Notes: generated by a model from the sequence alone, not told the origin. A DNA stretch of 26,234 nt from an uncultured Burkholderiaceae bacterium (GCA_964432095.1 CAYSMM010000002.1:1-26234), one strand, 5' to 3'; numbered from the stretch's first letter, positions 270 to 25,385 are shown. Numbers and translations: made by a program.

Positions 270-315
270 GGGCTTGGACGGTGAAATACGAATTGGTAAA
301 AAGTCAGAAAACCAT

Positions 316-386
316 GTACTTCATGCTGTATAATCATGTTACTGGTTTTTAGTAGAGCAGAAATGGTATTATACATAGTACAGTAT
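316..386 (+). repeat. 71-bp dyad-symmetric intergenic element, copy A
   Basis: GTAC-ttcatgct-GTATA-atcatgtt-ACTGG-tttttagtaga-GCAGA-aatggtat-TATAC-atagtaca-GTAT; about 31% GC; ends about 20 bp from the ferredoxin stop. Confidence 0.85.
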
Positions 387-407: not shown

Positions 408-743
408 TTATGCCTCGGGCTCATCGGGCAGACGCAGCCTTGCAACCGGTACGCCATTCTTCAGGTGACTTTCGACGATTTCATCGAGGTCGTGTTGGTC
501 GACATACGTGTACCAGACGTTGTCGGGGTACACCACCGCACAGGGGCCTAGTTCGCACCGTTCCAGGCAGCCCGAGGTGTTGACGCGTACCATGCCCGGG
601 CCCTTCAATCCCATGGCCTTGATCTTGTCCTTCACATAATTCACGGCCTGCTCAGCCCCCTGTGCTGCACAACATGGCCGCGGCGCATCGGCAGGCCGCT
701 GGTTCTGGCAAAAGAAAATGTGATGGCGGTAGTAAGACGGCAT
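408..743 (-). CDS. Thioredoxin-like [2Fe-2S] ferredoxin
   Basis: HIFFCQNQR...CC...SGCLERCELGP...VVYPDNVWY motif. Start moved to MPSYY (743) because the upstream extension overlaps the VanZ gene. Confidence 0.9.
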   Translation of the reverse strand: MPSYYRHHIFFCQNQRPADAPRPCCAAQGAEQAVNYVKDKIKAMGLKGPGMVRVNTSGCLERCELGPCAVVYPDNVWYTYVDQHDLDEIVESHLKNGVPVARLRLPDEPEA

Positions 744-807
744 GAGCGACCCGGGTTGAGGAGTGAGTGAAAAGCGCGGAGCGCGTGCAAGTGCACAAGG
801 CGTAATT

Positions 808-1911
808 TTAGTTTTTCGCTGAAACCGCCCTGCGAAACAGGTAAAGCAACGCCGCAAACGGCCATAGCATCGACAGCCAGTGCGCCAACCCATGCAGGCG
901 TATCCAGCGCCCTTGCTGCCATTGCCGCAAGTTGAGGTCGTAGTAGGGATCTTCAGGCAGTTGATTCATCATCGCCAGCAGCAGCACCGCTACTGCCAGG
1001 CCCGCCACGGCGCCCATGCGCGGCGGTGCAAACGACAAACCCAGCGCCACAAGCGTACCCGCTGCGAGCGGCGCGATGTTATCGGCGCTGACCCACTCCA
1101 GCGCATGCAGCGGGCCGTAGCTCATGGCTTGCGACAATGTTGTGGCTGCTGCGCCAGCTGCCAGCACTGCGAGTGTGAGCCACACGCGCGGCGCACGCGG
1201 CTGCGCGATGCTGGCGACAAGCAAGCCCAGAAGCATGCACGCCAGCGCCGGCAGCGCCTGTTGTTGCGGCTCCGACAAACCCGCAGGAGACCAGCCTGCC
1301 AGCCATTGCGCCAAGCTCGTGTCATTCTGCGTGTGCTGCGACAGCCAATCGGTGAACGATGCCACCACGTTGCCCGTGCCAAACAGCACTGGCTGTGGAT
1401 ACAGCAAGGCCGCTGGCCATAAGCCCAGTAGAAGAAGCCCATAGCTGGCGTCGCTGGAAAACCAGTCGTGCCGCGCGATGTACAGCGCGTTGGTAGCACG
1501 CAGCCGCGGAATCACCAGCGCCGCAAGCGCCGCACCCACCAGCGCCCCGGCGGTATTGAGGCCCCAATCCACATTCGACGGTATGCGCTGCGGCATGAAG
1601 CTCTGCGCGGCCTCCATCACGAACGACACCGCAAGCGCCAGCATTGTCGCGGCCAAAACCACTGCCACGCCGCGCAAGCGAGGCAATATCGCAGCGACCA
1701 AAAAAAACCCCAGCGGTACATAGCCCAGCACATTGAGCCAGATGTCTTGCCGTGTGATGTAGCGCGGCCAAGGCGCAGTGACGAAGGCCCAGGGCGCGAT
1801 GCCACGGTATGCCCAGCCCGCAAACGGATACAAGCTGGCATACACCACGACAGCCGCGTACACCGCGAGCGCATAACGCGTCAACGGGGAGGGCTGAAGC
1901 GAGTGCATCAT
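808..1911 (-). CDS. VanZ-family membrane protein
   Basis: SLYPF...D..LNVLGYVPLGFF...E..Q.FMP.R.PSNVDW.LN..G signature; many hydrophobic helices; TGATG overlap with the hemJ stop. Confidence 0.85.
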   Translation of the reverse strand: MMHSLQPSPLTRYALAVYAAVVVYASLYPFAGWAYRGIAPWAFVTAPWPRYITRQDIWLNVLGYVPLGFFLVAAILPRLRGVAVVLAATMLALAVSFVMEAAQSFMPQRIPSNVDWGLNTAGALVGAALAALVIPRLRATNALYIARHDWFSSDASYGLLLLGLWPAALLYPQPVLFGTGNVVASFTDWLSQHTQNDTSLAQWLAGWSPAGLSEPQQQALPALACMLLGLLVASIAQPRAPRVWLTLAVLAAGAAATTLSQAMSYGPLHALEWVSADNIAPLAAGTLVALGLSFAPPRMGAVAGLAVAVLLLAMMNQLPEDPYYDLNLRQWQQGRWIRLHGLAHWLSMLWPFAALLYLFRRAVSAKN

Positions 1912-3210: not shown

Positions 3211-4221
<1,011 letters not shown>

Positions 4222-5373: not shown

Positions 5374-5407
5374 GCGCATGCCCGCTCCAATTACATCAGC
5401 TTCTCAT

Positions 5408-5478
5408 ATACTCCATATTCTATAAAGCCTTTACTGGTAATATTTATTGACTGAGAATCTGTATACTTATTGAAGTAA
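5408..5478 (+). repeat. 71-bp dyad-symmetric intergenic element, copy C
   Basis: ATAC-tccatatt-CTATA-aagccttt-ACTGG-taatatttatt-GACTG-agaatctg-TATAC-ttattgaa-GTAA; about 27% GC; right central half-site degenerate. Confidence 0.78.
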
Positions 5479-5708: not shown

Positions 5709-5737
5709 TTGATTTTGCCGGCAAAGTACTGTATATT
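5709..5737 (+). promoter_or_regulatory. Candidate sigma70 promoter of the Y-family polymerase
   Basis: TTGATT (5709-5714), 17 bp, TATATT (5732-5737); the -10 lies inside the LexA box. Confidence 0.5.
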
Positions 5738-5746
5738 TAAACAGTA
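5727..5746. promoter_or_regulatory. LexA (SOS) box
   Basis: TACTGTATATTTAAACAGTA matches the beta/gammaproteobacterial CTG-N10-CAG consensus with TA flanks and abuts the start codon of an error-prone polymerase. Confidence 0.92.
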
Positions 5747-7023
5747 TGCTGCGCTACCTGGTACTGGATTTCAACTCGTACTTTGCCTCGGTTGAGCAAC
5801 AATTGCGGCCGCAGTTGCGCGGCCGCCCGGTGGGCGTGGTGCCAATGCTGGCCGACAGCACCTGCCTGATTGCGGCGAGCTACGAATGCAAGCGGCTCGG
5901 TGTCAAAACCCTCACGCGCGTACGCGACGCCAAGCGCATCATTCCCGACATCGTGCTCGTCCAGGCGCGGCATGCGGAGTACGTGCAGTTTCACGAGCGC
6001 GCGGTGAAAGTGGTCGATTCGATACTGCCGATCGAGAAGGTGATGTCGATTGACGAGATGGCGTGCGAGTTGCCCAAGCGCTTCAGCGCACCCGACGTGG
6101 CGCGTGTCAAGGCACAGGAAATCAAGAACGCAATCATGCGCGAGCTGGGCGAGTGTCTGAAGACGAGCGTGGGCATTGCGCCCAACATTTTCCTGGCCAA
6201 GCAGGCCAGCAATATGCAAAAGCCTGACGGTCTGACAGTCGTCACGCTCGACGACTTGCCGCACAAACTCTATGCGCTCAAACTGGGCGATCTCACCGGC
6301 ATTGGCCCGCGCATGTTGAGGCGCCTCAACGCGCAAGGCATTCACACCATAGAGCAATTGTGGGCGCTGAACAAAGATCAACTGCACAGTCTTTGGGGCG
6401 GAGTGGGTGGCAGCGACTTTTACGATCAGCTGCGCGGCGAAACAGCCACCCGGCGTCAAGAAGGCGGCAAGAGCATCAGCCAAAGCCATGTGTTGCCGCC
6501 CGACATGCGCACCCTCAAAGACGCCTATGCTGTGCTCGACCGGTTGACGCAAAAGGCGGCCATGCGATTACGCAAGGCGTCGCTGGTGGCGTGTCATATG
6601 CACATCGTGGTGAAGGCGGCGCATCACTTTCGAGACGCGGGTAGCAAAATGAGTTGGGAGGCTGGCGCGGGTCTGGCCGAGACGCAAGACACGCAAGCCT
6701 TTGTGCGTTGCCTCAAAGAGCTATGGAAGCAGATCGAGCAACAGGCACGCAGCGCGCATGACGAGCGTGCGGTGCCCTATCAAGTGGCCATGGTGTTCAG
6801 CGGATTGATGCCGCTATCGCAATACACGCCTGATTTATTCGCGCAGGCCGAGGTGCAGCAAAAGCGTGCCCGCCCGCAAGAAAAACTCAACAAAGCCGTC
6901 GATGCCTTGAACGTGCGCTATGGCAAGAACACCTTGTACTTCGGCGCGGCGCATGAGGCCAAAGCACATGCGGGCATGGCAATCGCGTTCAATCACATTC
7001 CCGATCTTGAGACGGAGCGGTGA
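5746..7023 (+). CDS. Y-family DNA polymerase (DinB/UmuC-like)
   Basis: LDFNSYFASVEQ, AASYECKRLGVKT, catalytic SIDE, SVGIAPNIFLAK, DLTGIG; UmuC-like tail AVDALNVRYGKNTL. Confidence 0.93.
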   Translation: MLRYLVLDFNSYFASVEQQLRPQLRGRPVGVVPMLADSTCLIAASYECKRLGVKTLTRVRDAKRIIPDIVLVQARHAEYVQFHERAVKVVDSILPIEKVMSIDEMACELPKRFSAPDVARVKAQEIKNAIMRELGECLKTSVGIAPNIFLAKQASNMQKPDGLTVVTLDDLPHKLYALKLGDLTGIGPRMLRRLNAQGIHTIEQLWALNKDQLHSLWGGVGGSDFYDQLRGETATRRQEGGKSISQSHVLPPDMRTLKDAYAVLDRLTQKAAMRLRKASLVACHMHIVVKAAHHFRDAGSKMSWEAGAGLAETQDTQAFVRCLKELWKQIEQQARSAHDERAVPYQVAMVFSGLMPLSQYTPDLFAQAEVQQKRARPQEKLNKAVDALNVRYGKNTLYFGAAHEAKAHAGMAIAFNHIPDLETER

Positions 7024-10283: not shown

Positions 10284-10314
10284 CGTCACTCATCACTACC
10301 GCAACGCGAGACTT

Positions 10315-10349
10315 GGCCCGCAGGAGCAAGATGCCTGCTGGCTCTTTTC
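10315..10349 (+). terminator. Weak candidate terminator after the TonB receptor
   Basis: GGCC-c-GCAGG...CCTGC-t-GGCT then CTTTTC; the stem is interrupted and the U-tract is short. Confidence 0.3.
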
Positions 10350-10402
10350 ATTGCGGTGATTCACAGGTAAGCATGCAAATACCGGTCAACATCAATACTT
10401 TT

Positions 10403-10473
10403 ATACATCGGTATCTGTACAGTTTCTACTGTTTATTAATTATCTAGTAATCGGCATATAGATAGGAAAGTAT
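10403..10473 (-). repeat. 71-bp dyad-symmetric intergenic element, copy E
   Basis: Minus strand: ATAC-tttcctat-CTATA-tgccgatt-ACTAG-ataattaataa-ACAGT-agaaactg-TACAG-ataccgat-GTAT. Confidence 0.8.
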
Positions 10474-10517
10474 ACAGTATGCTGAGTGCGTCACCACTTG
10501 GCTGATGCAGCGCTTGT

Positions 10518-11447
10518 TCAGCGCTGCAAACCAAACAGGCGCTCCCCGTTGAGGTAGGCGATGCGCGCGGCCACATCGGGCGGCAGCTCACCCAGCCAGC
10601 GGCGGTACTCGGCCATCAAGTCGTCGTAGTGCTGCCAGCGCTGGTTCACCCAGGTATCGCTGCCGATCAAAAAACGATCCGCAAACTCAGTGAACAACTC
10701 GCGCCATGGTGCTGATAGTTTGCCGTCTTGTGTAAGGCCGGGCCGGTACGACAGCTCGCCCATCAGACCGGGGTGTTTGTTCAGCAGCTCGCGCACCCGC
10801 GCAACAGGTACTCCGCCAATCCCGGTGTGCGCCCAGATCACTTTGGCCTTGGGGGCGTGCGCGTACAGCAGCTCAATCGCGACGTCGTCCACATGCGCCA
10901 GCACCACCAGACCGCGCTGCTCGGCCAGCTGCATCAATTTCTTCGCCACCGGGCCGTTGGCATTGGCGCTGTCGTAGAGGTGAAACTCGCCAATGCCGCG
11001 ATACGCGCCGCTGGGTGTGCCGGTCTTCAACTCGTCGAGCACCCTCTGGTAAATCGTCTCGTCGCGAAACCAGTTGCTGTAATCCGCACGGTTACGGTAC
11101 AGCCGCACGAAGGGCACCACCGTCACGCTGGCAGCGCGCGTCTCGGCCGTCGCGCTGGCCAAAATCTTGGTACCGTCGTTGGGGCGGCTGTTGGCAACGA
11201 TGGCGCGCACCTCGTTGCGCTGGAACTTGGCCAGCACATCGGGCAGAGGGTGTGCGGTGAGTGCGTCGTCGTTGTAGTGCAGGTGCGCGTCGAACAACGG
11301 GCCGCGATACGAACCCGCATCGCCCGCTGAGCCTTGGGCCACGATCAAGCCTGATGCGCAGGCTATGACGACAGCCATGATGCCGGCACGCAGAGCTGGG
11401 TCAATCAGGATTAGGCGCATCTGAAGATTGTGCGCCGAGTGATTCAT
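10518..11447 (-). CDS. Amidohydrolase-superfamily (TatD-like TIM barrel) protein, probably exported; start uncertain (11447 or later)
   Basis: Metal ligands DAHLH, IGEFH, LAHVD, WAHTG, GSDTW; hydrophobic N-terminal segment. Confidence 0.85.
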
Positions 11448-11465
11448 CTACGCTATGGTAGAGAG

Positions 11466-11536
11466 ATACAGCATTATGTATATATGCTTTACCGGTTTAT
11501 GGCAAAGCAGAGAGGTGCATATAGACACAACAGTAT
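11466..11536 (+). repeat. 71-bp dyad-symmetric intergenic element, copy F
   Basis: ATAC-agcattat-GTATA-tatgcttt-ACCGG-tttatggcaaa-GCAGA-gaggtgca-TATAG-acacaaca-GTAT. Confidence 0.85.
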
Positions 11537-11555
11537 ATTGATGCTGATTGTGCAG

Positions 11556-14495
11556 TCACTTATTCAGCATTCCCTCAAAGCCTATGAGTTCGCCAGTGGC
11601 GCTGCCTTCACCCGCTGCTTTGCGTGCCTTGCCTTTGGCCTTGGGGGATGCCGCAGGTACGCTTGCGCCGTCCAGCACACGCGCCAAAAAATACCCGGTG
11701 TGGCTGGTGGCGTGTGCAGCCACTTCTTCAGGTGTGCCGGCCACCACAACTTGCCCGCCGCCGGCGCCGCCCTCGGGCCCCATGTCGATGATCCAGTCTG
11801 CGGTTTTAATGACGTCGAGGTTGTGCTCGATCACCACGATGGTGTTGCCGTGGTCGCGCAGCGTGTGCAGCACCTTGAGCAACAGCTCGATGTCGGCAAA
11901 GTGCAGCCCGGTGGTGGGTTCGTCGAGGATGTAGAGCGTGCGGCCGGTGTCGCGCTTGGACAGCTCCAGCGCCAGCTTCACGCGTTGCGCCTCGCCGCCC
12001 GACAAGGTAGTGGCGCTTTGCCCGAGCTTCACATAGCCCAGGCCTACATCCATCAGCGTTTGCAGCTTCTTGTTGATGGCGGGCACGCTCTCAAAAAACG
12101 CGAGCGCAGCCTCCACCGTCATGTCCAGCACTTCGCTGATGTTTTTGCCCTTGTACAAAATCTCCAGCGTTTCGCGGTTGTAGCGCTTGCCGTGGCACAC
12201 ATCGCAGGGCACGTACATGTCAGCCAGAAAATGCATCTCCACTTTGATGACGCCGTCGCCCTGGCAATGCTCGCAGCGCCCGCCCGACACGTTGAACGAA
12301 AAACGCCCCGCGCTGTAGCCTCGCTCGCGCGCTGCGGGCACTTGCGCGAACAAGTCACGTATCGGCGTGAACAGCCCGGTGTAGGTAGCCGGGTTGCTGC
12401 GCGGCGTGCGGCCAATCGGCGATTGATCGACGTTGATCACCTTGTCGAACTGATCCATCCCGTCGATATGCTCATGCTTGGCGGGCTCGGCATGGCTGCC
12501 GTAAATCTGCTTGGCCGCGGCGTTGTACAGCGTATCGTTCATCAGCGTGCTCTTGCCCGAGCCGCTGACGCCCGTGACGCAGGTGAACAGTCCCACGGGA
12601 ATGCGCGCCGTCACATCGCGCAGGTTATTGCCGCTGGCCTTGTCGATGCTCAACCACTTGCCGCTGTGGGCGGTGCGCAGCTTGGGCAGGCCGATGCGGC
12701 GCTTGTGGGCCAGGTATTGCCCGGTGAGCGATGAATCCGTGGCGGCCACCTCGCTCGGCGTGCCTTGCGCCAGCACCCAGCCGCCGTGCACGCCCGCACC
12801 GGGGCCGAGGTCGATCACATGATCTGCCGCGCGAATGGCGTCTTCGTCATGCTCCACCACCAGCACGCTGTTGCCCAGATCGCGCAGGTGTTTGAGTGTG
12901 CCGATCAACCTGTCGTTGTCGCGCTGATGCAGACCGATGGACGGCTCGTCGAGCACATACATCACGCCTGTCAGGCCGCTGCCGATTTGCGACGCCAAAC
13001 GGATACGCTGCGACTCGCCGCCGCTCAAGGTGTCGGCACTACGGTCGAGCGACAAATAATCCAGCCCCACGTTGTTGAGAAAGGTCAGGCGTGAGGTGAT
13101 CTCACGCACGATCTTCTCGCCGATCTCGGCCTTCGCGCCGCTGAGCTTGAGCTCGCTGAACCAACGATGCGTTTCACGCAGCGGCCAATGGCTCAACTCG
13201 TAAATCGGCCTGGACTGTGCACCTTCACCCAGCCGCACATGCCGCGCCTCGCGCTTTAAGCGCGTGCCCTGGCAGTCTGGGCATGGCGAGACTGCCCAGT
13301 AGCGCGCCAGCTCCTCACGCACCGCCAGGCTGTCGGTTTCGCGCCAACGCCGCTCGATGTTGGGAATGACGCCTTCAAACGCATGCTTGCGGATGACGGA
13401 CTTGCTCTTCTCGGTGAGGTAGCTGAAGGCAATCTGCTCGTCGCCGCTGCCGTGCAGCACCGTGCGCTGCACCTTGGTTGGCAGGCTTTCAAACGGCTGC
13501 TCCACGTCAAAGCCGTAGTGCTGCGCCAGCGAGTTGATGAGCGAGAAGTAATACAGATTACGCCGGTCCCAGCCGCGAATGGCGCCACTGGCCAGCGACA
13601 GCTCGGGGTGTGCCACCACGCGCGCTACATCGATCACATCCACATGGCCCAGCCCGTCGCAGGTGGGGCAGGCGCCTGCCGGGTTGTTGAACGAGAACAA
13701 TCGCGGCTCGAGCTCGGCCAGGCTCCAGCCGCACACCGGGCAGGCAAACTTGTTGCTGAATACCTGCTCGGACTGCGTGTCCACGTCCACCGTCAGCGCC
13801 TTGCCGTCGGCCAGGCGCAGCGAGGCCTCGAAACTCTCGGCCAGCCGCTGCTTGATGCCAGCCGACACCTTCACACGGTCGATCACCACGTCGATGTCAT
13901 GCTTGTCGTTCTTGCGCAGCACCGGCAGCTCGGCGGTCTCGACCACCTTGCCGTTGACACGAAAGCGCACATAGCCCTGCGCCTGCATCTGCTCAAACAA
14001 ATCCTGGTGCTCGCCTTTACGGCTGCGCACCACGGGCGCCAGAATCATCAGCTTGGTGTCTGCGGGCAGCGCCAGCACGGCGTCGACCATCTGGCTCACG
14101 CTTTGCGCGCGCAGCGCCTCATGCGGGTGGTCAGGGCAGTAGGGCGTGCCCACGCGCGCGTAAAGCAGGCGCAGGTAATCGTGAATCTCGGTGACCGTGC
14201 CCACCGTCGAGCGCGGGTTGTGCGAGGTGGCCTTTTGCTCGATGCTGATGGCTGGCGACAAGCCCTCGATCACGTCCACGTCGGGCTTTTCCATCAACTG
14301 CAAAAACTGCCGCGCATAGGCCGACAGCGACTCCACATAACGCCGCTGGCCCTCGGCATACAGCGTGTCAAACGCCAGCGACGACTTTCCGCTGCCGCTC
14401 AAGCCGGTGATCACCACAAGCTGGTTGCGCGGAATGTCCAGCGATATGTTTTTGAGGTTGTGCGTGCGTGCGCCGCGAACCTTGATGAAATCCAT
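11556..14495 (-). CDS. uvrA: Excinuclease ABC subunit A
   Basis: [17 protein letters not shown], two Walker A motifs ([16 protein letters not shown]), LSGGE signatures, Zn-finger CxxC pairs; start moved to 14495. Confidence 0.98.
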
Positions 14496-14654
14496 GCGTC
14501 GTAGTCGGTATGGTTTTGCCGGGCCGGGTAAATGGCATCCCTTGCACGCGGCGGGCAGCGAGGGCCTAGGCACGCGCGGCGCAGGTAAACTCTCAAGTTT
14601 ACTCTTGCCGCATTGCCGCCTCCATGCTGCTGCTGCGGGCAAACTCCCCTCGCC

Positions 14655-15890
14655 ATGAACACACCTGCCAACCCGCCTTTATCAGACACGCACCGCATGA
14701 CGCCGCTGGAGCTGCGGGCGGCGGGCTGGCTGTCGTCGATTTTTGCGCTGCGCATGCTGGGCTTGTTCCTCATCCTGCCGGTGTTTGCGATCCATGCGAA
14801 AAACCTGCCCGGGGGTGATGATTTGTTCTGGGTCGGCGTGGCCATGGGCATTTACGGCCTCACGCAGGGCGTGCTGCAAATTCCGTTTGGCTTGGCCAGT
14901 GACCGTTTTGGCCGCAAGCGCGTCATCATCATCGGCCTGCTGATTTTTGCTGCCGGCTCGGTGATAGCCGCGCTGGCGCAAACCGTGTGGATGGTGATTC
15001 TGGGCCGCGCGGTGCAGGGCGCGGGCGCAATTTCGGCAGCGGTCAGCGCGATGATTGCCGACAGCACGCGCGACACGGTGCGCACCAAAGCCATGGCCAT
15101 GCTGGGCAGCATGATCGGCCTGACGTTTGCGCTGTCGCTCATCTTGTCGCCGATGCTGGTCAGTGCCCTTGGCGTGGCCGGCCTGTTCTGGCTGACGGCA
15201 GCGCTATGTGTGGCAGGCATAGCCGTCATGCTGTGGGCCGTGCCCGACGCACCCCAAGCCACCGAGATGGTGGACGCGCGCATCACCTGGCAGCACGTCG
15301 TGTTGATGCCCGACCTGCTGCGCTTGAATGTGGGCATGTTTACGCTGCATGTGGTGCAAATGGCGCTGTTCGTGGCCGTGCCCGTGGCGCTCTTCAAGCA
15401 TGCCAACCTGCCGCTGGCTGCGCACTGGCAGGTGTACCTTCCGGTGGTGCTGTTGAGTTTTGTGGCCATGATGCCGCCGCTCATCTGGGCCGAGAAGCGC
15501 GGCCAACTGCGCGTGGTGTTTCTCTCATCCATAGCGCTGCTGCTGCTCACCTTGCTGCTACTGGCGCAAACCTATCGCACTGCCTGGCTGCTCATCGCTG
15601 GCTTGTGGCTGTTTTTCGTGGCGTTCAACATACTCGAGGCGTTGATCCCGTCGCTGGTGTCGCGCCACGCCCCGGCGGGCCGACGTGGCTTGGCCCTGGG
15701 CGTGTACAACACCACCCAGGCGCTGGGCTTGTTTGTCGGCGGCGCTGTCGGCGGCAAGCTCGCGCAGTCGATGGGCTACGGCCACATGTTTATGGCCTGC
15801 GCCGGGCTTACGGCGCTGTGGCTTATCATTGCCTGGCGCATGCAGCCGCCGCCCGCAAGGCAAGTGGCGGTAAGCGCGCAACCCGCATAG
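14655..15890 (+). CDS. MFS transporter (YajR-like)
   Basis: MTPLELRA...[27 protein letters not shown] motif A, about 12 TM helices; start at 14655 or 14697. Confidence 0.9.
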
Positions 15891-15977
15891 TTTTCAGGCA
15901 TTACTTTGCACCCAAATCATTATCAAACGAGTTGCAGCGGTCGGCAGACGCTGTGGTACTAAGCCAAGGAGCATCAC

Positions 15978-16448
15978 ATGGCATCGGTCAACAAAGTCAT
16001 CATCATGGGCAACTGCGGGCGCGACCCCGAAGTGCGCTACACCCCAAGCGGCGCGGCCATTTGCAACGTGAGTGTGGCCACGTCGAGCAAGCGCAAAGAT
16101 AAAAACACCGGCGAGACGATCGAAGACACGCAGTGGCACCGCGTCACGTTTTACGACCGGCTGGCCGAGATTGCGGGCGAGTACCTCAAGAAGGGCCGCC
16201 CGGTGTATGTGGAAGGCCGCCTGAAGTACGGCAAATACACTGACAAAGACGGCATCGAACGCAACACAGTCGATATCGTCGCCACCGAGATGCAACTGCT
16301 CGGCGGCCGTGAGGGTGGCAGCGCGCCGTCAGACGATGCTGGCTACTCACGCGCACCCGCGCCTGCCGTAGCGGCCAAGAAGCCTGCAGCGGCGGCCAGC
16401 AAACCCGCGACGGGGTTTGATGATATGGACGACGATATTCCGTTCTAA
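15978..16448 (+). CDS. ssb: Single-stranded DNA-binding protein
   Basis: MASVNKVII.GN.GRDPEVRY, WHRV.FY.RLAEIAGEYLKKG, C-terminal DDDIPF; AAGGAG RBS. Confidence 0.98.
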   Translation: MASVNKVIIMGNCGRDPEVRYTPSGAAICNVSVATSSKRKDKNTGETIEDTQWHRVTFYDRLAEIAGEYLKKGRPVYVEGRLKYGKYTDKDGIERNTVDIVATEMQLLGGREGGSAPSDDAGYSRAPAPAVAAKKPAAAASKPATGFDDMDDDIPF

Positions 16449-16465
16449 AGAATCCATAAAGATTG

Positions 16466-16536
16466 ATACTCATTGGTGTAACATGCCGTTTCTGGTTATT
16501 GAGAAACCAGTAAACGGCTTATACACTGTAATGTAT
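16466..16536 (-). repeat. 71-bp dyad-symmetric intergenic element, copy G
   Basis: Minus strand: ATAC-attacagt-GTATA-agccgttt-ACTGG-tttctcaataa-CCAGA-aacggcat-GTTAC-accaatga-GTAT. Confidence 0.85.
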
Positions 16537-16624
16537 AAGTCTAATCGGCATGTCATCATCGTCCTGGCGTCGTGACAGGCGCATGGAGTTCTGGCCAAGG
16601 CCAGGTTATCGAGGCCATTAACAC

Positions 16625-17551
16625 CTAAATCGTAGCTGCCCGCCGATGCAGCTTGCCTTGCGCATCCACCGCCAGATACGCCACGCCGAGCGTGTTGAGG
16701 TAGTCGAGCGCGGCGCTCTCCTTGAGCATGGCAATGGTGGTGATGGCGCCTGCGATGAGGGCGTGCGATGCCAGCACGCTGACGCTTTGCCATGCGCGTA
16801 CCGGCCAGCCGGTGTGCGGGTTGAGAATGTGGCAGTAACGTTGGCCGTCCAGCTCAAAGTAGCGCTCGTAGTCGCCGCTGGTGGCCAGTGCGCCCTGCGC
16901 CACGGGCAGTGAGGCGATCACCTCGTCTGCCTTACGCGGGTGCGCGATGGCAATCAGCCACGGTGTGCCGTCAGACTTGGGCCCGATCACGCGTACATCG
17001 CCGCCGAGGTTGACAAAGCCATGTGCAATGCCGTGCTGCTGCAGTATGGTGGCGGAGCGGTCGGCGGCATATTCTTTGCCGAAGCCGCCAAAGTCGATTT
17101 GCATGCCGACCTCGGGCAGTGCAATGCGGCGGTGGTCCGCGTCCCATTGCACCTGTGGCCAACCGATGAGGCGCAGCACCTCATCGATCTGGTTTTGCGC
17201 AGGCACACGCCGGGCTTGAAAGTCCCACACACGGCGCAGCACGCCGGAGGTAATGTCGAACAGCCCGCCGCTTTGCGCATGCAGTTGCGCTGCGAGGGTG
17301 AGCAGTTGCGCGCATTCCTCAGTCACCTCCACGGCCTGGCCGCTGCCGGCAGAAGCATTGATGCGGCTGACGATGCTGTCCGCACGGTAACGCGAGTAGG
17401 TGGACTCGATACGCTGCACTTCGGCCATTGCCAGCTGTGCCGCAGCCTGTGCCGCAGCTTCGCTGACACCGGCAATGCGTAATTCGCAACGCGACGCCAT
17501 GGCGGTGAACTCAAAGCCCAGGCTGTCGGTTTCAATATGCGCGCTTGTCAT
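16625..17551 (-). CDS. apbE: FAD:protein FMN transferase (ApbE family)
   Basis: F.AMASRCEL, S.YRADS.VSRIN, GLFDIT, DFGGFGKEYAAD, NLGGD, ATSGDYER, HILNPHTGWP; no lipoprotein signal seen; start uncertain (17551 or 17500). Confidence 0.92.
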   Translation of the reverse strand: MTSAHIETDSLGFEFTAMASRCELRIAGVSEAAAQAAAQLAMAEVQRIESTYSRYRADSIVSRINASAGSGQAVEVTEECAQLLTLAAQLHAQSGGLFDITSGVLRRVWDFQARRVPAQNQIDEVLRLIGWPQVQWDADHRRIALPEVGMQIDFGGFGKEYAADRSATILQQHGIAHGFVNLGGDVRVIGPKSDGTPWLIAIAHPRKADEVIASLPVAQGALATSGDYERYFELDGQRYCHILNPHTGWPVRAWQSVSVLASHALIAGAITTIAMLKESAALDYLNTLGVAYLAVDAQGKLHRRAATI

Positions 17552-17631
17552 GCACGGGAGTGTCGCAGATCGCCTGACAGTGTTGTACAAATCGTCACGC
17601 CCGCGGCGTGGCGCTGCTGCACAATCAGTGG

Positions 17632-19011
17632 ATGACGAAATTGATTCGCAGTGTGTGGCTGTCGTTGCGTGAGGGCCTGCTGGTGTGGGCGCCGTTCGTG
17701 ATGCTGACTTTGCTGCTGCTGGCGCTGGCGTACTGGGTGCTCAAGCCCACGCCACCCAAGCAGGTGATGCTGGCTACGGGCCCTGAGCAGGGCGCGTACG
17801 ACACCTTCGGCAAGCTGTATGCGCAGGCGCTGGCGCGCTATGGCATCACAGTGCAAACCCAGCGAAGTGCGGGCTCGGTGGCCAACCTCGGCAAGCTGCG
17901 TAGCGCCCCCGCCGAGGTGCAGATCGCGTTTGTGCAAGGCGGCAGTGCACCGGCCGAGTTACGGCAGGCCGCGGATGATGATGTACTGGGCAGCAGCAGC
18001 GAGCTGGTATCGCTGGGCAGTTTGTTTTATGAGCCGGTGTGGCTGTTCTACCGCGAGGACGCCGTTCGGCGCGCAGCCGGTGCGCGCACGCCCCGGCCGG
18101 TGCCTGCGCCTGCGGTGCTCGATTCGCTGGATGGCCTGCGTGGCTGGCGCGTGAATGTGGGCACCGAGGGCAGCGGCATCACGCCGGTGGTGATGCACCT
18201 GCTGGACGCCAACAACATCGACGCGAAAGAGCTGACACTGCTGCGGCTGGATCACACGCCGGGTGTCATCGAGCTGCTGGAGGCGCGTGCCGATGCGATG
18301 TTTTTTGTGAGCGCGCCCGAAAGCCCGCTCATCCAGATGCTGCTGCAAACACCGGGTATCCGCCTGTTTGACTTTGCGCAGGCCGAGGCGTATTCACGCC
18401 GCTTTCCATACTTGAGCCATGTCACGCTGCCGCGCGGCATCGTGGATTTGGGCCGCGACATTCCAAGTCAAGACTATCGCTTGATCGCGCCGACGGCCAC
18501 GTTGCTGGCACGGCGTGATCTGCACCCGGCGCTGATGCAGTTGTTCATGCAGGCCGCGGGGCAGATTCACGGCAGTGCGGGCTGGTTTCGCAAGGCCGGG
18601 GAGTTTCCGAGCGCGCGCAACAACGAGTTTCCGGTGGCCGAGGAGGCGCAGAAGTTTTTGCGCAATGGCCCGCCGCTGCTGCAGCGCTACCTGCCGTTCT
18701 GGCTGGCCAATCTCATCGAGCGCATGTGGGTGGTGTTGGCCGCCATCATTGCGGTGATGCTGCCGCTGTCGCGAATCGTGCCGCCGCTGTATGAGTTTCG
18801 CATCCGCTCACGCATCTTCCGCTGGTACGGCCAGTTGCGCGCGATCGAGGAAAGCCTGAGCAAACCTGGCGCAGACCGCGAGGCACAGCTCGCGCAGCTC
18901 AACGCGATGGAGCAGCGCGTGGAGCGCATTGCCGTGCCGCTGTCGTATGCTGACGAGCTGTATGCGCTGCGTCAGCACATCGACTTGGTGCGTTCGCGTG
19001 CGAGGGCCTAG
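17632..19011 (+). CDS. TAXI-family TRAP solute-binding protein with terminal TM segments
   Basis: LATGPEQGAY, SAGSVANL, IAFVQGG, LGSLFYEPVWLFYR, VNVGTEGSG, LPRGIVDL; C-terminal hydrophobic segment. Confidence 0.85.
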   Translation: MTKLIRSVWLSLREGLLVWAPFVMLTLLLLALAYWVLKPTPPKQVMLATGPEQGAYDTFGKLYAQALARYGITVQTQRSAGSVANLGKLRSAPAEVQIAFVQGGSAPAELRQAADDDVLGSSSELVSLGSLFYEPVWLFYREDAVRRAAGARTPRPVPAPAVLDSLDGLRGWRVNVGTEGSGITPVVMHLLDANNIDAKELTLLRLDHTPGVIELLEARADAMFFVSAPESPLIQMLLQTPGIRLFDFAQAEAYSRRFPYLSHVTLPRGIVDLGRDIPSQDYRLIAPTATLLARRDLHPALMQLFMQAAGQIHGSAGWFRKAGEFPSARNNEFPVAEEAQKFLRNGPPLLQRYLPFWLANLIERMWVVLAAIIAVMLPLSRIVPPLYEFRIRSRIFRWYGQLRAIEESLSKPGADREAQLAQLNAMEQRVERIAVPLSYADELYALRQHIDLVRSRARA

Positions 19012-19033
19012 ACTACTTAATTCAGAATCAATG

Positions 19034-19104
19034 ATACACAAATGAGTATAATGCCATCACTGGTTTTTATGAGATCAGAAACGGCACTATAGTAATGACA
19101 GTAT
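19034..19104 (+). repeat. 71-bp dyad-symmetric intergenic element, copy H
   Basis: ATAC-acaaatga-GTATA-atgccatc-ACTGG-tttttatgaga-TCAGA-aacggcac-TATAG-taatgaca-GTAT; shares ACTGGTTTTTA and ACAGTATCAATGT with copy A. Confidence 0.88.
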
Positions 19105-19258
19105 CAATGTTTCAGGAAACGCTGAATAAGCTTGGCGAGCGGGTGCAAGGCAAGGAACGGGGCCCAATAAGAGCCAGAGCTTACTCAAGCGTAAGTGAGG
19201 GTTCTTGTTGGGCTGTGACGTAGCATTGCGCCCGCGCAGCCGCTTAGGCAGCGTTTTC

Positions 19259-20482
19259 CTAGAAGTTGCGAGTGATGCCCAGCTGCAGCACACTAGCCTT
19301 CAGCGGCTCGATGCCAGGGCTGCCTTCGCCGCCGATGCGCCAGTCACTTTTCTGCTGGTAAGCCTCGAACTTGCCGTCCACCAGCCAGTCTTTGGTGATC
19401 TGATAATTCGCCTTCAGGCCCAGCGTCACCGCACCGAAAGCCGACAGGCGATGATCGACCGAGCGGTAGCGGTCAGGCGTAAACGTAAACAATGCCAGCG
19501 GCACTTGTGACACCGGGCTAGTGGGGTCGGGGTCGTAGTAAAACGCCGCCGAGTTTTGCGTGTAATAGCGCAAGCTGGGCGTCAGCGTGAGCTTGGGCGA
19601 CACCGGCTGTGCCCAGTCCACCTCCACCGAATGGCCGCGGATATTGAACGTGTCGGCGTAGTAGCGGTAGGCCATGCGCAGCGCAGCATCGGTGCGCTTG
19701 ATGTAGTGGTTCCAGCGCACCAGGAAGATGTCCTGGTCGCGGAACAGCGGACGGCGGTCCAGTAGCCGGTATGGGTCGTTGTAGGCCGATGTGCCCACGC
19801 GCATGTTGGTGCTCTTGCCCTCATTGCGCGTGTAGGTGAACTGCATGATGTCGTTTTGCGAGACCACTTGCGTGAGGCCCAGCGACAGCTCGTTGATCCG
19901 CTTGTCGCCCCACACGGTGGGGCTTTCCTCAGGCCCACGTACCGTGTCGCGCGAGACGCCGACGCCTACATTCAGCGTGGTGTTCTTGCTCTCGGTGGAA
20001 ATGCTGCCGCTGACGCCAAAGCCGCGAGATGAGTAATCGTCTTCATCGGAGGTGGCCACGTTGGCCGACAGTGTGCCGCGCGAGAAGTAGCGAGTGACCT
20101 TCAGGCTTGCGCCGGTGCGTTTGTCTTCCATGCGCGAGGCGCTGGACACCACGGAGTAGGCGCGCGGCGTGGCGCCCGATACCCCGTCGTACTCGGCCGA
20201 GGCCTCCACACTCCACTGCCCTGCAATCGGCACCACGAGATGCACGGACGGTTGATTCACGGTAATGCGATCAAGCCCTGGCTGAGCGTCTTTGTAGCGC
20301 AGGTAACGCAAAGAGATGCTGCCGTTTTCAGGAATCTGCTGCGCCTGCGCCGTGCCAGGCAGGGCCACCATACCCGGCAGTGCGAGCGCTGCACAACTCA
20401 GCGCGGCAAGTTGGGCCGAGACGGTCGGCGCGTGTTTCGCAGACTTGCGGATGTTTTTTACCTTAGTTTTTTTGTGCTTCAT
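19259..20482 (-). CDS. DUF3570-family outer-membrane beta-barrel protein
   Basis: Signal peptide, alternating beta strands, DGVSGAT, YRYYADTFNIRGHSVE, C-terminal RNF; located downstream of DUF4266 and TlpA. Confidence 0.85.
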   Translation of the reverse strand: MKHKKTKVKNIRKSAKHAPTVSAQLAALSCAALALPGMVALPGTAQAQQIPENGSISLRYLRYKDAQPGLDRITVNQPSVHLVVPIAGQWSVEASAEYDGVSGATPRAYSVVSSASRMEDKRTGASLKVTRYFSRGTLSANVATSDEDDYSSRGFGVSGSISTESKNTTLNVGVGVSRDTVRGPEESPTVWGDKRINELSLGLTQVVSQNDIMQFTYTRNEGKSTNMRVGTSAYNDPYRLLDRRPLFRDQDIFLVRWNHYIKRTDAALRMAYRYYADTFNIRGHSVEVDWAQPVSPKLTLTPSLRYYTQNSAAFYYDPDPTSPVSQVPLALFTFTPDRYRSVDHRLSAFGAVTLGLKANYQITKDWLVDGKFEAYQQKSDWRIGGEGSPGIEPLKASVLQLGITRNF

Positions 20483-20587
20483 CTGATGTTTCGTAGTGAA
20501 ATACCGAAGCGCGTGCAAGCAGTGGCGAAACTAGCAGTCGCTTTGATGCTGCACTACGCCCGTACAGCCGAATGAGGCAGCAGCTTC

Positions 20588-20857
20588 TCAGTTGCAGCCG
20601 CAGCCACCGCCACCCACCCCATAGCCGCCTTGCGCATTTTCCTTACTGTTGTACACATGCGCGCGCGCGCGCTGGTCAGCACCGCCCCCGTCAAGGCGCA
20701 TCTGCGGTTTGGCTAGGTTGCCCTTCTCCCAAGGTTGCACCTGGCCGAGCTTGCTGCCCGCACAGCCCGTGAGCGCAAGCGCTGCGAGGCCTACGGCCGC
20801 GATGCGCACCCAGTGCCCTGCGCCGTGTTGTGTCCCATGTATTGCCGTCAATGTCAT
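20588..20857 (-). CDS. DUF4266-family lipoprotein
   Basis: Lipobox LTGC; VQPWEKGNLA..M....HVYNSKE.A.GG.GVGGGGCGCN. Confidence 0.88.
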   Translation of the reverse strand: MTLTAIHGTQHGAGHWVRIAAVGLAALALTGCAGSKLGQVQPWEKGNLAKPQMRLDGGGADQRARAHVYNSKENAQGGYGVGGGGCGCN

Positions 20858-20902
20858 TGCGTCGTTCCTGTCCGGGAAATTGAATCGATAGTCAATCAGT
20901 CG

Positions 20903-21427
20903 CTAGTTGGCAGCTTTCACAGCCTGGGAGATTTTTTCTTCCAGTTCTTTGGTCATAGCGGTGTTGAAGCCCGAGTGCACTGCCAGCACTTTGCCGTCGC
21001 GCCCCACCAGCACCGAGCTGGGCATACCCTTGACCTTGTATTGCTTGGGCGACTGCGCGGTAGCGTCGAACGCCACGGCAAACTTGGCAGGCACCTCGCT
21101 CAAAAACTGCTGTGCCAGCTTGCGCTCGTTATCCAGGTTGATCGCCACCACCTTGAAGCCTTGCTCGCCGTACTTGGATTGCATCGCATTCATCCACGGG
21201 AAGGATTCACGGCACGGCGCGCACCACGATGCCCAAAAATCCACGTACACCACTTGGCCTTTCAAATCGGCCAGGCGCACTTGCTGGCCGGGCATTACGC
21301 CGGGCAGCTCGAACGCTGGTGCAGCCTGGCCTGGCTGTGCCGCATGCGATGCACCGCTAAGCGAGGCCATGGCAGTGACCGCAGCCACAACCAGCGCTGT
21401 GTTGAGTTTCTTCTTGGGGATCATCAC
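20903..21427 (-). CDS. TlpA-family thiol:disulfide oxidoreductase
   Basis: Signal peptide, AP.FEL, VVYVDFWASWCAPCRESFPWMN, GMPSSVLVGRDG. Confidence 0.93.
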   Translation of the reverse strand: MMIPKKKLNTALVVAAVTAMASLSGASHAAQPGQAAPAFELPGVMPGQQVRLADLKGQVVYVDFWASWCAPCRESFPWMNAMQSKYGEQGFKVVAINLDNERKLAQQFLSEVPAKFAVAFDATAQSPKQYKVKGMPSSVLVGRDGKVLAVHSGFNTAMTKELEEKISQAVKAAN

Positions 21428-21984
21428 TTCTCACCTTGTTGAACCGCTTGAGCCGAACGCCTGTCGGCGCGGCTTTGCCACAGGCGCCACGCCAGCACAC
21501 CGGTAGCCAATGCCGCCATCAATGCCAGCAGCGGATCCACCAGGCTCGTGCGGCCCACGGCGATGGTGCAGCCACCGCCACCTACATTGGTGGGTTCACT
21601 GGTTGTCGCCGTACTACCGCTACCGCCACTGCTGGGAGGAGGATTACCCACTGCCGATGGGTTGGCCAGGTATGCCGCGATATCCGCGTAGTCGGCCGTC
21701 ACCATGTATTGGCCGATGTAGCCCATTGCGCCTTTGTTCTGCCCGACTGCTGTGGCAATCAAGCCGGGGTTATTGGCAGCCCGGCGTGCAATGCTGTCAG
21801 GTGGGCTGCTGTGGCAACCCGCGCAACTAGAAGGGCTACCCGTCGTACCGGGCAAGGTGAAGTACAAATCGCGCCCGCGTTGGGCGTTTTGTGCGAAAGC
21901 CGGGCTGAGGGCGCTGAACGCGGCGATGGCTAGCGCAGCGCAGGCAGCAGGCAGTGCAGACTGAGGGCGTATTCCGGGGTGCAT
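21424..21984 (-). CDS. Small monoheme c-type cytochrome with a JDVT-CTERM-like sorting tail
   Basis: Signal peptide, CAGCH (21811-21825), distal AMG, Ser/Gly linker, then GGGGCT...DP, a TM helix and basic residues; ATGA overlap with tlpA. Confidence 0.8.
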   Translation of the reverse strand: MHPGIRPQSALPAACAALAIAAFSALSPAFAQNAQRGRDLYFTLPGTTGSPSSCAGCHSSPPDSIARRAANNPGLIATAVGQNKGAMGYIGQYMVTADYADIAAYLANPSAVGNPPPSSGGSGSTATTSEPTNVGGGGCTIAVGRTSLVDPLLALMAALATGVLAWRLWQSRADRRSAQAVQQGEK

Positions 21985-22244
21985 CGAGAGTCTCTTTTTT
22001 CTTGCTACGGCTCGCAGGATCGACTACCGCAATCATCTGAAAACCTTAACGAAATTCCGCTTCTAATACAGTAACAGAGGGTGAGTTGAGTCAGTGTTAC
22101 AACATTGCGCCATCCGTCCCGCCGAGGAGCGACTGTTGTACTGTCATCACAGTCGTTGAATAATGAGACAGAATTTGCGACGTTTTCGCGGCTTGGCGTA
22201 ACCGCCCAGCCGTACTTAACAAGGCGCAAGCCTGGAGGTGTGAT

Positions 22245-22802
22245 TTGCGGGTGCTCAGACTAGACGTAGCCGGCCTTCCGCGGGAGTGGCTGACAACAAC
22301 CGAGGCGGCCTTGCTCTACGCCACCGATTGCGTGGTGTGGACGCTGGGCGACCCGTTCGCGCGCCTGCGCGGTGGCGTACAGCGCGCCACGGGCGTGCAG
22401 TCGCGCATCGACGTGCACCCCATCATTGCTACCCGTGGCGCGGCGCCCAACTTCGTGTTCGGGCAGACGCCGTCGCTGTCGAACCGCAAGCTGTTCGCGC
22501 GCGACCGGCATATCTGCGCCTATTGCGGCGGGCATTTCCACAGCGACCATTTGACGCGTGACCATATCGTAGCCACCTCGCGCGGTGGGCACGACACGTG
22601 GATGAACTGCGTCACGGCTTGTCGCACTTGCAACGGTTTGAAAGGCAGCAAGCTGCCCGAAGAGGCGGCCATGCCGCTGCTTTATCTGCCCTATGTGCCC
22701 AATTTGCACGAGGACATGATCTTGCGCGAGCGTCAGATTCTGGCCGATCAGATGGAGTTTTTGCGTGCAAGCCTTCCCAAGCACAGCCGCCTTCATAGCT
22801 AA
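22245..22802 (+). CDS. HNH endonuclease
   Basis: LFARDRHICAYCG...LTRDHIV..SRGG.DTWMNCVTACRTCNGLKG; TTG start 6 nt after GGAGG. Confidence 0.92.
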   Translation: MRVLRLDVAGLPREWLTTTEAALLYATDCVVWTLGDPFARLRGGVQRATGVQSRIDVHPIIATRGAAPNFVFGQTPSLSNRKLFARDRHICAYCGGHFHSDHLTRDHIVATSRGGHDTWMNCVTACRTCNGLKGSKLPEEAAMPLLYLPYVPNLHEDMILRERQILADQMEFLRASLPKHSRLHS

Positions 22803-22811
22803 CGGATTCTT

Positions 22812-22881
22812 ATACTATAACGACTATCATAGTTTATTCTTCTACGAGCGGCCAGTGATTGCACTATAGATAGTGTAGTAT
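22812..22881 (-). repeat. Dyad-symmetric intergenic element, copy I (70 bp, one base short)
   Basis: Minus strand: ATAC-tacactat-CTATA-gtgcaatc-ACTGG-ccgctcgtag-AAGAA-taaactat-GATAG-tcgttata-GTAT; fills 70 of the 83 intergenic bases. Confidence 0.75.
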
Positions 22882-22885
22882 CGTC

Positions 22886-25357: not shown

Positions 25358-25385
25358 AAAAAGCCCCCGCACTCAGTGCGAGGGC
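25358..25385 (-). terminator. Intrinsic terminator at the ald/phoX convergent junction
   Basis: Minus strand GCCCTCGCAC-TGA-GTGCGGGGGC followed by TTTTTGTTTG. Confidence 0.75.

Follow-up and report, generated by a model that had tools for sequence, protein, structure and literature searches.

Seven copies of one element in a single contig

The DNA analysed here (the window) is a stretch of 26,234 nucleotides from an uncultured Burkholderiaceae bacterium, and makes up contig C2 of an assembly that is fragmented into 405 contigs (2.50 Mb, 59.7% GC, 91% complete). The host falls within the Burkholderiales, and its UvrA is at most 74% identical to that of any named genome. The window contains seven AT-rich islands, which align as one family. 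They are seven copies of a palindromic element of 72 bp found behind the ends of genes (Table 1), and this element is the subject of the present work.

As noted in an initial annotation made from the sequence alone, all seven copies lie close to stop codons. The gaps are 21, 33, 44, 19, 16, 21 and 4/8 bp for copies 1 to 7, measured to genes supported by Pfam. The same annotation placed the element in four of the five convergent junctions of the window, and this is also the case: the junctions are TonB receptor/amidohydrolase, ssb/apbE, TAXI-like/DUF3570 and HNH/MobA-like. The last gene had been labelled MocA, which should be corrected, as Pfam identifies it as a MobA-like nucleoside triphosphate transferase. 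The divergent junctions of the window contain no copy, again as described.

Table 1. Copies of the 72-bp element and terminator-like features in the window.
Feature	Position	Strand	Setting	Support
Copy 1	315..386		tandem junction, 21 bp past the stop codon of gene 408-893(-)	nhmmer E=1e-10
Copy 2	5407..5478		tandem junction, corA-like/Y-family polymerase	nhmmer E=1e-6; Pfam CorA, IMS
Copy 3	10402..10473		convergent junction, TonB receptor/amidohydrolase	nhmmer E=6e-3 (final model), 4.5e-12 (seed model)
Copy 4	11465..11536		tandem junction, uvrA/amidohydrolase	nhmmer E=2e-9; Pfam UvrA domains
Copy 5	16465..16536		convergent junction, ssb/apbE, ssb stop 16 bp before	nhmmer E=2e-12
Copy 6	19033..19104		convergent junction, TAXI-like (NMT1_3)/DUF3570, 21 bp past the upstream stop	nhmmer E=4e-12; Pfam
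Copy 7	22811..22881		degenerate, 71 nt, 1 nt short, left central motif lost	seed-model E=3e-9; half-model E=0.07
Moderate hairpin of the TonB receptor gene, with weak U-tract	10314..10351	+	between the TonB receptor stop and copy 3	own terminator scan
Canonical intrinsic terminator, ald/phoX	25363..25385	-	convergent junction	10-bp stem with 8 GC pairs, then TTTTTGTTTG; dG -19.5 kcal/mol

The surroundings of the copies differ in spacing. Between the corA-like stop (5373) and copy 2 there are 33 bp, and the Y-family polymerase gene starts 267 bp beyond the copy. For copy 3, the amidohydrolase stop is 44 bp away and the TonB receptor stop 118 bp away; the copy contains ATACA (10403-10407) and AGTAT (10469-10473). 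Copy 4 is squeezed between the uvrA stop, 19 bp away, and the amidohydrolase start codon, 17 bp away, so that the promoter of the amidohydrolase gene must be inside or beyond the element. Copy 7 fills its junction, HNH/MobA-like, with the two stop codons at 8 and 4 bp. The amidohydrolase gene (10518-11447, minus strand) is thus flanked by copies 3 and 4, which are one of three element pairs less than 1 kb apart in the assembly.

The one convergent junction of the window that lacks the element, ald/phoX, holds the only strong canonical terminator of the window, which the initial annotation described as a textbook intrinsic terminator. The accompanying statement, that the four occupied junctions have no strong GC hairpin with a U-tract, is not strictly true. 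It fails at the TonB receptor end, where a moderate hairpin (approximately 10314-10343, dG -13.7 kcal/mol) is formed by GGCCCGCAGGAGCAAGATGCCTGCTGGCTC and followed by CTTTTCAT. No GC-rich hairpin with a U-tract was found inside any of the element copies in the window. The ssb gene provides a useful comparison. Among 51 uvrA-ssb loci of other proteobacteria, a strong canonical terminator comes next after ssb in 39; here no canonical terminator was found after ssb, and the element is present instead, 16 bp past the stop codon.

Anatomy and placement across the genome

Copies of the element were collected over the whole assembly using an iterated nhmmer profile, and positions within the element are given in the 72-nt frame of the model. 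There are approximately 460 non-overlapping copies, 387 of them at E < 1e-4, which corresponds to one per 5.4 kb. The length is constant at 72 bp with almost no insertions or deletions, the GC content is 34%, and the dyad is centred on position 37. The left half contains three near-invariant blocks: ATACT at 2-6, WSTA at 13-16, and TnnCTG at 25-30, in which T25 and C28-T29-G30 are the fixed letters. These are mirrored in the right half by C44-A45-G46 together with A49 (44-49), TASW at 58-61 and AGTAT at 68-72. Positions within the motif are 94-100% conserved, as against 0-0.4 bits in most other columns. About 8 bp beyond either end there is a weak AT-rich block, and the footprint including these blocks is about 90 bp.

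Outside the motif the positions are close to random. The mean pairwise identity of the copies is 0.550, compared to 0.551 expected from column composition. Given that the blocks are 94-100% conserved and that the remainder is randomised, the conclusion is that purifying selection has acted on each copy. The way in which the profile was built cannot explain this contrast, since copies of recent origin would match one another at the free positions too. Conservation is equal in the two halves: in tandem junctions, the stop-proximal half scores 28.7 bits and the stop-distal half 28.3 bits. The orientation of the element was said to be independent of the direction of transcription, and in tandem junctions genome-wide 105 copies have the same orientation as the upstream gene and 110 the opposite one.

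Two familiar types of DNA site were considered for the conserved blocks and rejected. The TATAAT/TATAC blocks are not sigma-70 promoters: the T and A that never vary occupy those positions of a -10 hexamer that matter least, and there is no conserved -35 box. Nor are they LexA boxes. The SOS boxes of this genome have the form TACTGT-N8-ACAGTA, which is distinct from the TACTG-N13-CAGTA of the element. One canonical SOS box, TACTGTATATTTAAACAGTA, is found in the window at 5727-5746, directly ahead of the Y-family polymerase gene (5746-7023); the strict pattern fits two boxes in the assembly.

The distribution of copies was analysed over 269 convergent, 1463 tandem and 283 divergent junctions. 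Genes were called with a simple codon-model caller of our own, and these calls are supported by Pfam inside the window. The initial annotation expected copies to be distributed according to the type of junction, and they are: 144 of the 269 convergent junctions are occupied (54%), compared to 215 tandem (15%) and 14 divergent junctions (5%). The difference between convergent and divergent occupancy has a Fisher p of 5e-42. When gaps of at least 80 bp are considered, occupancy is 68% convergent, 32% tandem and 7% divergent; expressed per kb of other intergenic DNA, there are 3.9, 1.4 and 0.23 copies respectively. The placement bias is therefore real and far above chance. By junction type, 39% of the copies in junctions are convergent, 58% tandem and 4% divergent. 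The gaps that hold the 14 divergent copies are long (median 435 bp), and most of the 39 matches inside genes either reach over a gene end or belong to short open reading frames with low scores.

Within tandem junctions, the element is located at the upstream gene. It is found at a median of 24 bp past the upstream stop and 71 bp before the next start codon, start codons being approximate in our gene calls. Even in tandem gaps of at least 300 bp the relative position of the element is still 0.11 from the stop. Genes followed by the element have slightly stronger codon bias (p = 2e-6, tandem junctions). It is striking that every occupied junction (373 of 373) has exactly one copy, and that the closest two copies in the assembly are 534 bp apart. 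A Poisson distribution would put two or more copies in about 48 convergent and about 17 tandem junctions.

A second relationship exists between the element and intrinsic terminators. In convergent gaps of at least 60 bp, hairpin-plus-T terminators with dG of -12 kcal/mol or below are approximately two-fold rarer at gene ends that carry the element (13% as against 25%).

On another contig (C240:1853-3966), a peroxiredoxin-like gene sits where the S10 and spc ribosomal-protein operons meet, inserted between rpsQ and rplN. It has a copy of the element on either side: the first comes after rpsQ, with which the S10 operon ends, and the second lies behind the peroxiredoxin gene, before rplN. A partner protein was sought among the genes bracketed by two elements. 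These are a peroxiredoxin gene, a small DUF-like open reading frame and the amidohydrolase gene, with no obvious DNA binder among them.

Structure, mobility and species distribution

A palindrome of this length could form a hairpin if transcribed, and the alignment was therefore analysed for the marks of RNA structure. In the full palindrome, 64.0% of cells are paired, compared to 62.3% after the columns of the 3' half had been shuffled among copies. The palindromy thus belongs to the consensus and does not reflect compensatory change. Weak covariation is confined to columns 19-27/47-55 (z 3-5), pairs in the inner stem such as 31-43 form no more often than by chance, and no long-range covarying columns were found in the element alignment. 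When the tandem junctions are oriented by transcription, the sense strand shows 374 G:T and 367 A:C mismatches, and hence no RNA wobble signature. A run of T comes after the element for 18 of 167 copies in tandem junctions and for 5-11 of 128 in convergent ones. A scan of the window against Rfam (E <= 1) gave no match to the element. It gave a single hit elsewhere in the window, the anti-hemB small RNA (RF02837; 3008-3093, minus strand; 69.9 bits, E=1e-14), which is divergent from hemB (ALAD, 3223-4221). On the basis of the covariation, the lack of G:U bias and the lack of a U-tract, the RNA hairpin model was rejected. There is some tendency to form a hairpin, which is minor. The minimum free energy is -17.1 kcal/mol for the real copies, compared to -13.9 for column-shuffled copies and -9.7 for shuffled sequences, and 10-13 of the 13 inner-stem pairs are formed in about 17% of copies, compared to 6% expected.

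Dispersed palindromes are often mobile, or have been. The element has terminal inverted repeats, ATACT...AGTAT, contained within the dyad that spans its whole length. We found no target-site duplication: no direct repeat of 2-9 bp is above the shuffled control in any register, and a TA duplication would be indistinguishable from the palindromic ends. Insertion into the loops of terminator hairpins was also considered and rejected, as the flanks are not complementary. Identity to the nearest neighbour is 0.71, compared to 0.68 with shuffled columns, and no near-identical copies with unrelated flanks were found. The closest pairs of copies share their flanks, and are thus paralogous loci and not fresh insertions. 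Two pairs with common flanks (C63:2103 with C215:4141, and C105:5470 with C111:212) are either paralogous loci or contigs from strain variants. Matches to half of the element are degenerate full copies. No larger parent element was seen, although the fragmented assembly could hide one. There is therefore no sign of active mobility.

The genome contains one gene for a Y1 transposase resembling RAYT, the transposases linked to REP (repetitive extragenic palindromic) sequences. It is located at C11:4191-4889 and scores 74.8 bits against NCBIfam REP_Tyr_transpos, for which the cut-off is 80. The locus (C11:4140-4960) lies between aroB-like and gltB-like genes, and a degenerate copy of the element is found directly upstream of the RAYT-like gene. 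The gene is however flanked on both sides by another palindrome, AATTGGGGTCTGACCCCAATT, built on GGGGTCTGACCCC. The core of this palindrome, TCTGACCCCAtTTATT, is also found downstream of the RAYT-like orthologue in one relative, and such orthologues are present in 24 of 31 relatives that have no element. On both grounds the element was rejected as the REPIN of this RAYT. A third GGGGTCTGACCCC palindrome occurs at C254:400.

The species distribution of the element is very limited. It was not found in 40 relatives, nor in a further 400 genomes representing 201 genera of its family, nor in plasmids and phages. A pattern scan of metagenomes gave five matches, which are judged to be chance. Within these collections, from which records very close to this genome may be missing, the element is restricted to one lineage.

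Proposed role and relation to known repeats

On the basis of these observations, we hypothesise that the element is a lineage-specific boundary element resembling the REP sequences and the bacterial interspersed mosaic elements (BIMEs), and that it is read as double-stranded DNA by a putative symmetric protein. We would give this reading about an even chance. The protein would have two-fold symmetry and would probably be multimeric. One copy would be common to two converging genes, or would stand behind the upstream gene of a tandem pair, and the effect at the end of the transcription unit could be partial termination or insulation, a change in local topology, or a contribution to nucleoid architecture. 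The family probably originated as a mobile palindromic repeat, which spread in this lineage and was then kept by selection. From the anatomy, copy number, placement and symmetry of the element, from its lack of RNA-type constraints and from its restriction to one lineage, we infer that it is bound by a protein and has a boundary function.

The initial annotation had proposed a protein-dependent roadblock acting in both directions, or a site that relieves positive supercoils between converging polymerases. The symmetric site at the DNA level, located at the ends of transcription units, is retained in our proposal. An obligatory block is unlikely. In 64 of the 215 tandem copies (30%), no more than 30 bp remain to the next start codon. 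Transcripts of these downstream genes must either cross the element or begin inside it, which speaks against an obligatory block and against a strict terminator at every site. Some further points weigh against the boundary proposal. The minor hairpin tendency described above, with its better free energy and better inner stems, is one. The AT profile of the element is most strongly periodic at 7.75 bp, with a minor peak near 11 bp, so that recognition from one face of the helix is not established, and we make no claim of helical phasing. The gene calls are our own, and no relative with the element has been found.

One alternative is that the element is an old selfish repeat, similar to a REP or to a MITE (miniature inverted-repeat transposable element), which inserted widely, is no longer mobile and survives only where it is harmless, namely behind stop codons and outside genes and promoters. 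The conserved blocks would then be former transposase-binding sites. Several features fit. The termini are palindromic; the T at position 0, the A at position 74 and the invariant TA at 3-4 and 70-71 would fit a TA-type target; presence in one lineage among 401 genomes of the family is what would be expected of a burst; REP elements share the placement bias; and the near-perfect inner stems in a subset of copies could be remnants of a perfectly palindromic founder. However, neutral decay should erode the motif as fast as the rest of the element, and the motif is almost invariant. Tolerance alone also leaves unexplained why each occupied junction has a single copy, when about 65 junctions with several would be expected, and stop-codon anchoring persists in long gaps. 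The absence of 2-9 bp duplications and of complementary flanks, and the failure to see near-identical copies in unrelated surroundings or a larger parent, point in the same direction. We therefore consider a selfish repeat rather unlikely. The related proposal of a REPIN that the single RAYT-like transposase mobilises or maintains can draw on the presence of that gene and of the degenerate copy directly upstream of it. It is very hard to reconcile with the different palindrome that brackets the gene and follows its orthologue in a relative, with the orthologues in element-free relatives, and with an element that has neither a GTAG or CGTC tag nor a maintained hairpin. We consider it highly unlikely.

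The remaining alternatives concern the level at which the element would act. If the palindrome acts in the transcript, as a hairpin in the 3' untranslated region that stops exonucleases and/or terminates transcription in both directions, then its position 10-40 nt past stop codons, in 3' untranslated regions, is appropriate. The free energies and the weak inner-stem covariation would also fit, as would the precedent of E. coli REPs, which act as context-dependent terminators and decay blocks (bioRxiv 10.64898/2026.03.23.713779). Yet such a hairpin would consist of AT-rich helices of 5-6 bp with large mismatched stretches between them, compensatory change is almost absent, pairs in the inner stem are at chance, the sense strand has no excess of G:U, Rfam contains no matching family, and T-runs rarely follow the element. 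An RNA-level role is thus improbable. Alternatively, the element could be a dedicated strong site for gyrase or another topoisomerase, or a site for an adaptor that recruits one, and would remove positive supercoils between converging polymerases. Its two-fold symmetry, its position in convergent junctions and its footprint with flanking AT blocks are consistent with this, as is the slightly stronger codon bias of genes before the element. There is also a precedent, since the BIME-2 repeats of E. coli are strong gyrase sites independent of transcription (PMC6379681). On the other side, the known gyrase motif of E. coli covers 130 bp and is very degenerate, beyond the reach of motif finders (PMC6379681), whereas the motif of the element is sharp, and relatives with the same gyrase all lack the element. 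A gyrase site is possible and is not favoured; we assign it a low probability.

The boundary proposal can be taken further. In a more specific form, the dyad would be the site of a lineage-specific symmetric complex that defines the boundaries of transcription units. It would serve as a sequence-specific, protein-based substitute for intrinsic terminators (a bidirectional terminator/insulator) or as a dedicated topoisomerase-loading site, with one copy placed behind the majority of converging gene pairs and maintained there by selection. In this detail the proposal is speculative, and we consider it unlikely. What is of general interest is that the family separates sequence recognition from hairpin structure. 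If a protein does read these sites, they would offer a clean natural system in which to study how boundaries are marked or how converging polymerases are handled, and would also illustrate how selection can preserve a repeat family that has lost its mobility. On the practical side, the profile is useful for annotating 3' ends in this uncultured lineage.

Many bacteria carry hundreds of REP-type repeats at the ends of their genes, and what these repeats do is still debated. For REP and BIME, the functions proposed include termination, protection of mRNA, and binding of gyrase or IHF. The element resembles the REP and BIME sequences of E. coli and the REPINs of Pseudomonas in being a dispersed extragenic palindrome with hundreds of copies, and shares with REP and BIME its location at gene 3' ends, its enrichment between convergent genes and its near absence between divergent ones. 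E. coli REPs are approximately 60% convergent, 40% tandem and 1% divergent, and occupy 30% of convergent gaps (bioRxiv 10.64898/2026.03.23.713779). In other respects the element differs from these families. It is AT-rich (34% GC) and not GC-rich, and its stems are not kept by compensatory change. REP palindromes are reported to have a conserved GTAG or CGTC tag at one end (Di Nocera 2013, PMC3733652); the profile of the element has no such column, and its conserved ends are ATACT and AGTAT. Copies of the element are no more similar than draws from a position matrix, and there is no master sequence with close variants; the RAYT-like gene of this genome is flanked by a palindrome other than the element. 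Unlike the doublets of BIMEs and REPINs, the element is never clustered or arranged in arrays, although its 72-bp dyad could be counted as one inverted doublet.

MITEs, such as the Correia elements of Neisseria, are similar in being short palindromic intergenic sequences with inverted ends, which are AT-rich relative to the host genome and possibly have TA-type ends. Correia elements are often co-transcribed with the adjoining genes, and occur as length variants of about 100-155 bp; the element described here has one fixed length. It also differs from MITEs in having no detectable target-site duplication, no near-identical copies and no parent element, and in being conserved at its motif alone. 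Bidirectional intrinsic terminators are comparable in that one symmetric element is shared by two converging genes, tens of bp past their stops. They differ in having a GC-rich stem and a flanking A- or U-tract, and the element conserves a sequence motif and not a structure. A further parallel may be the CIR repeats known from alphaproteobacteria including Caulobacter (Chen and Shapiro, 2003), which are said to be long dyad-symmetric intergenic sequences with invariant short motifs, located mainly between convergent genes. CIRs are reportedly defined by CcrM methylation sites (GANTC) and few in number. The placement of the element follows the rule already known for REPs, and the finding is therefore real, but the behaviour is not new in kind. 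The unusual part is that five features occur together: conservation of the motif alone, no maintenance of a stem, a fixed length, strict single occupancy, and a very high occupancy of convergent junctions.

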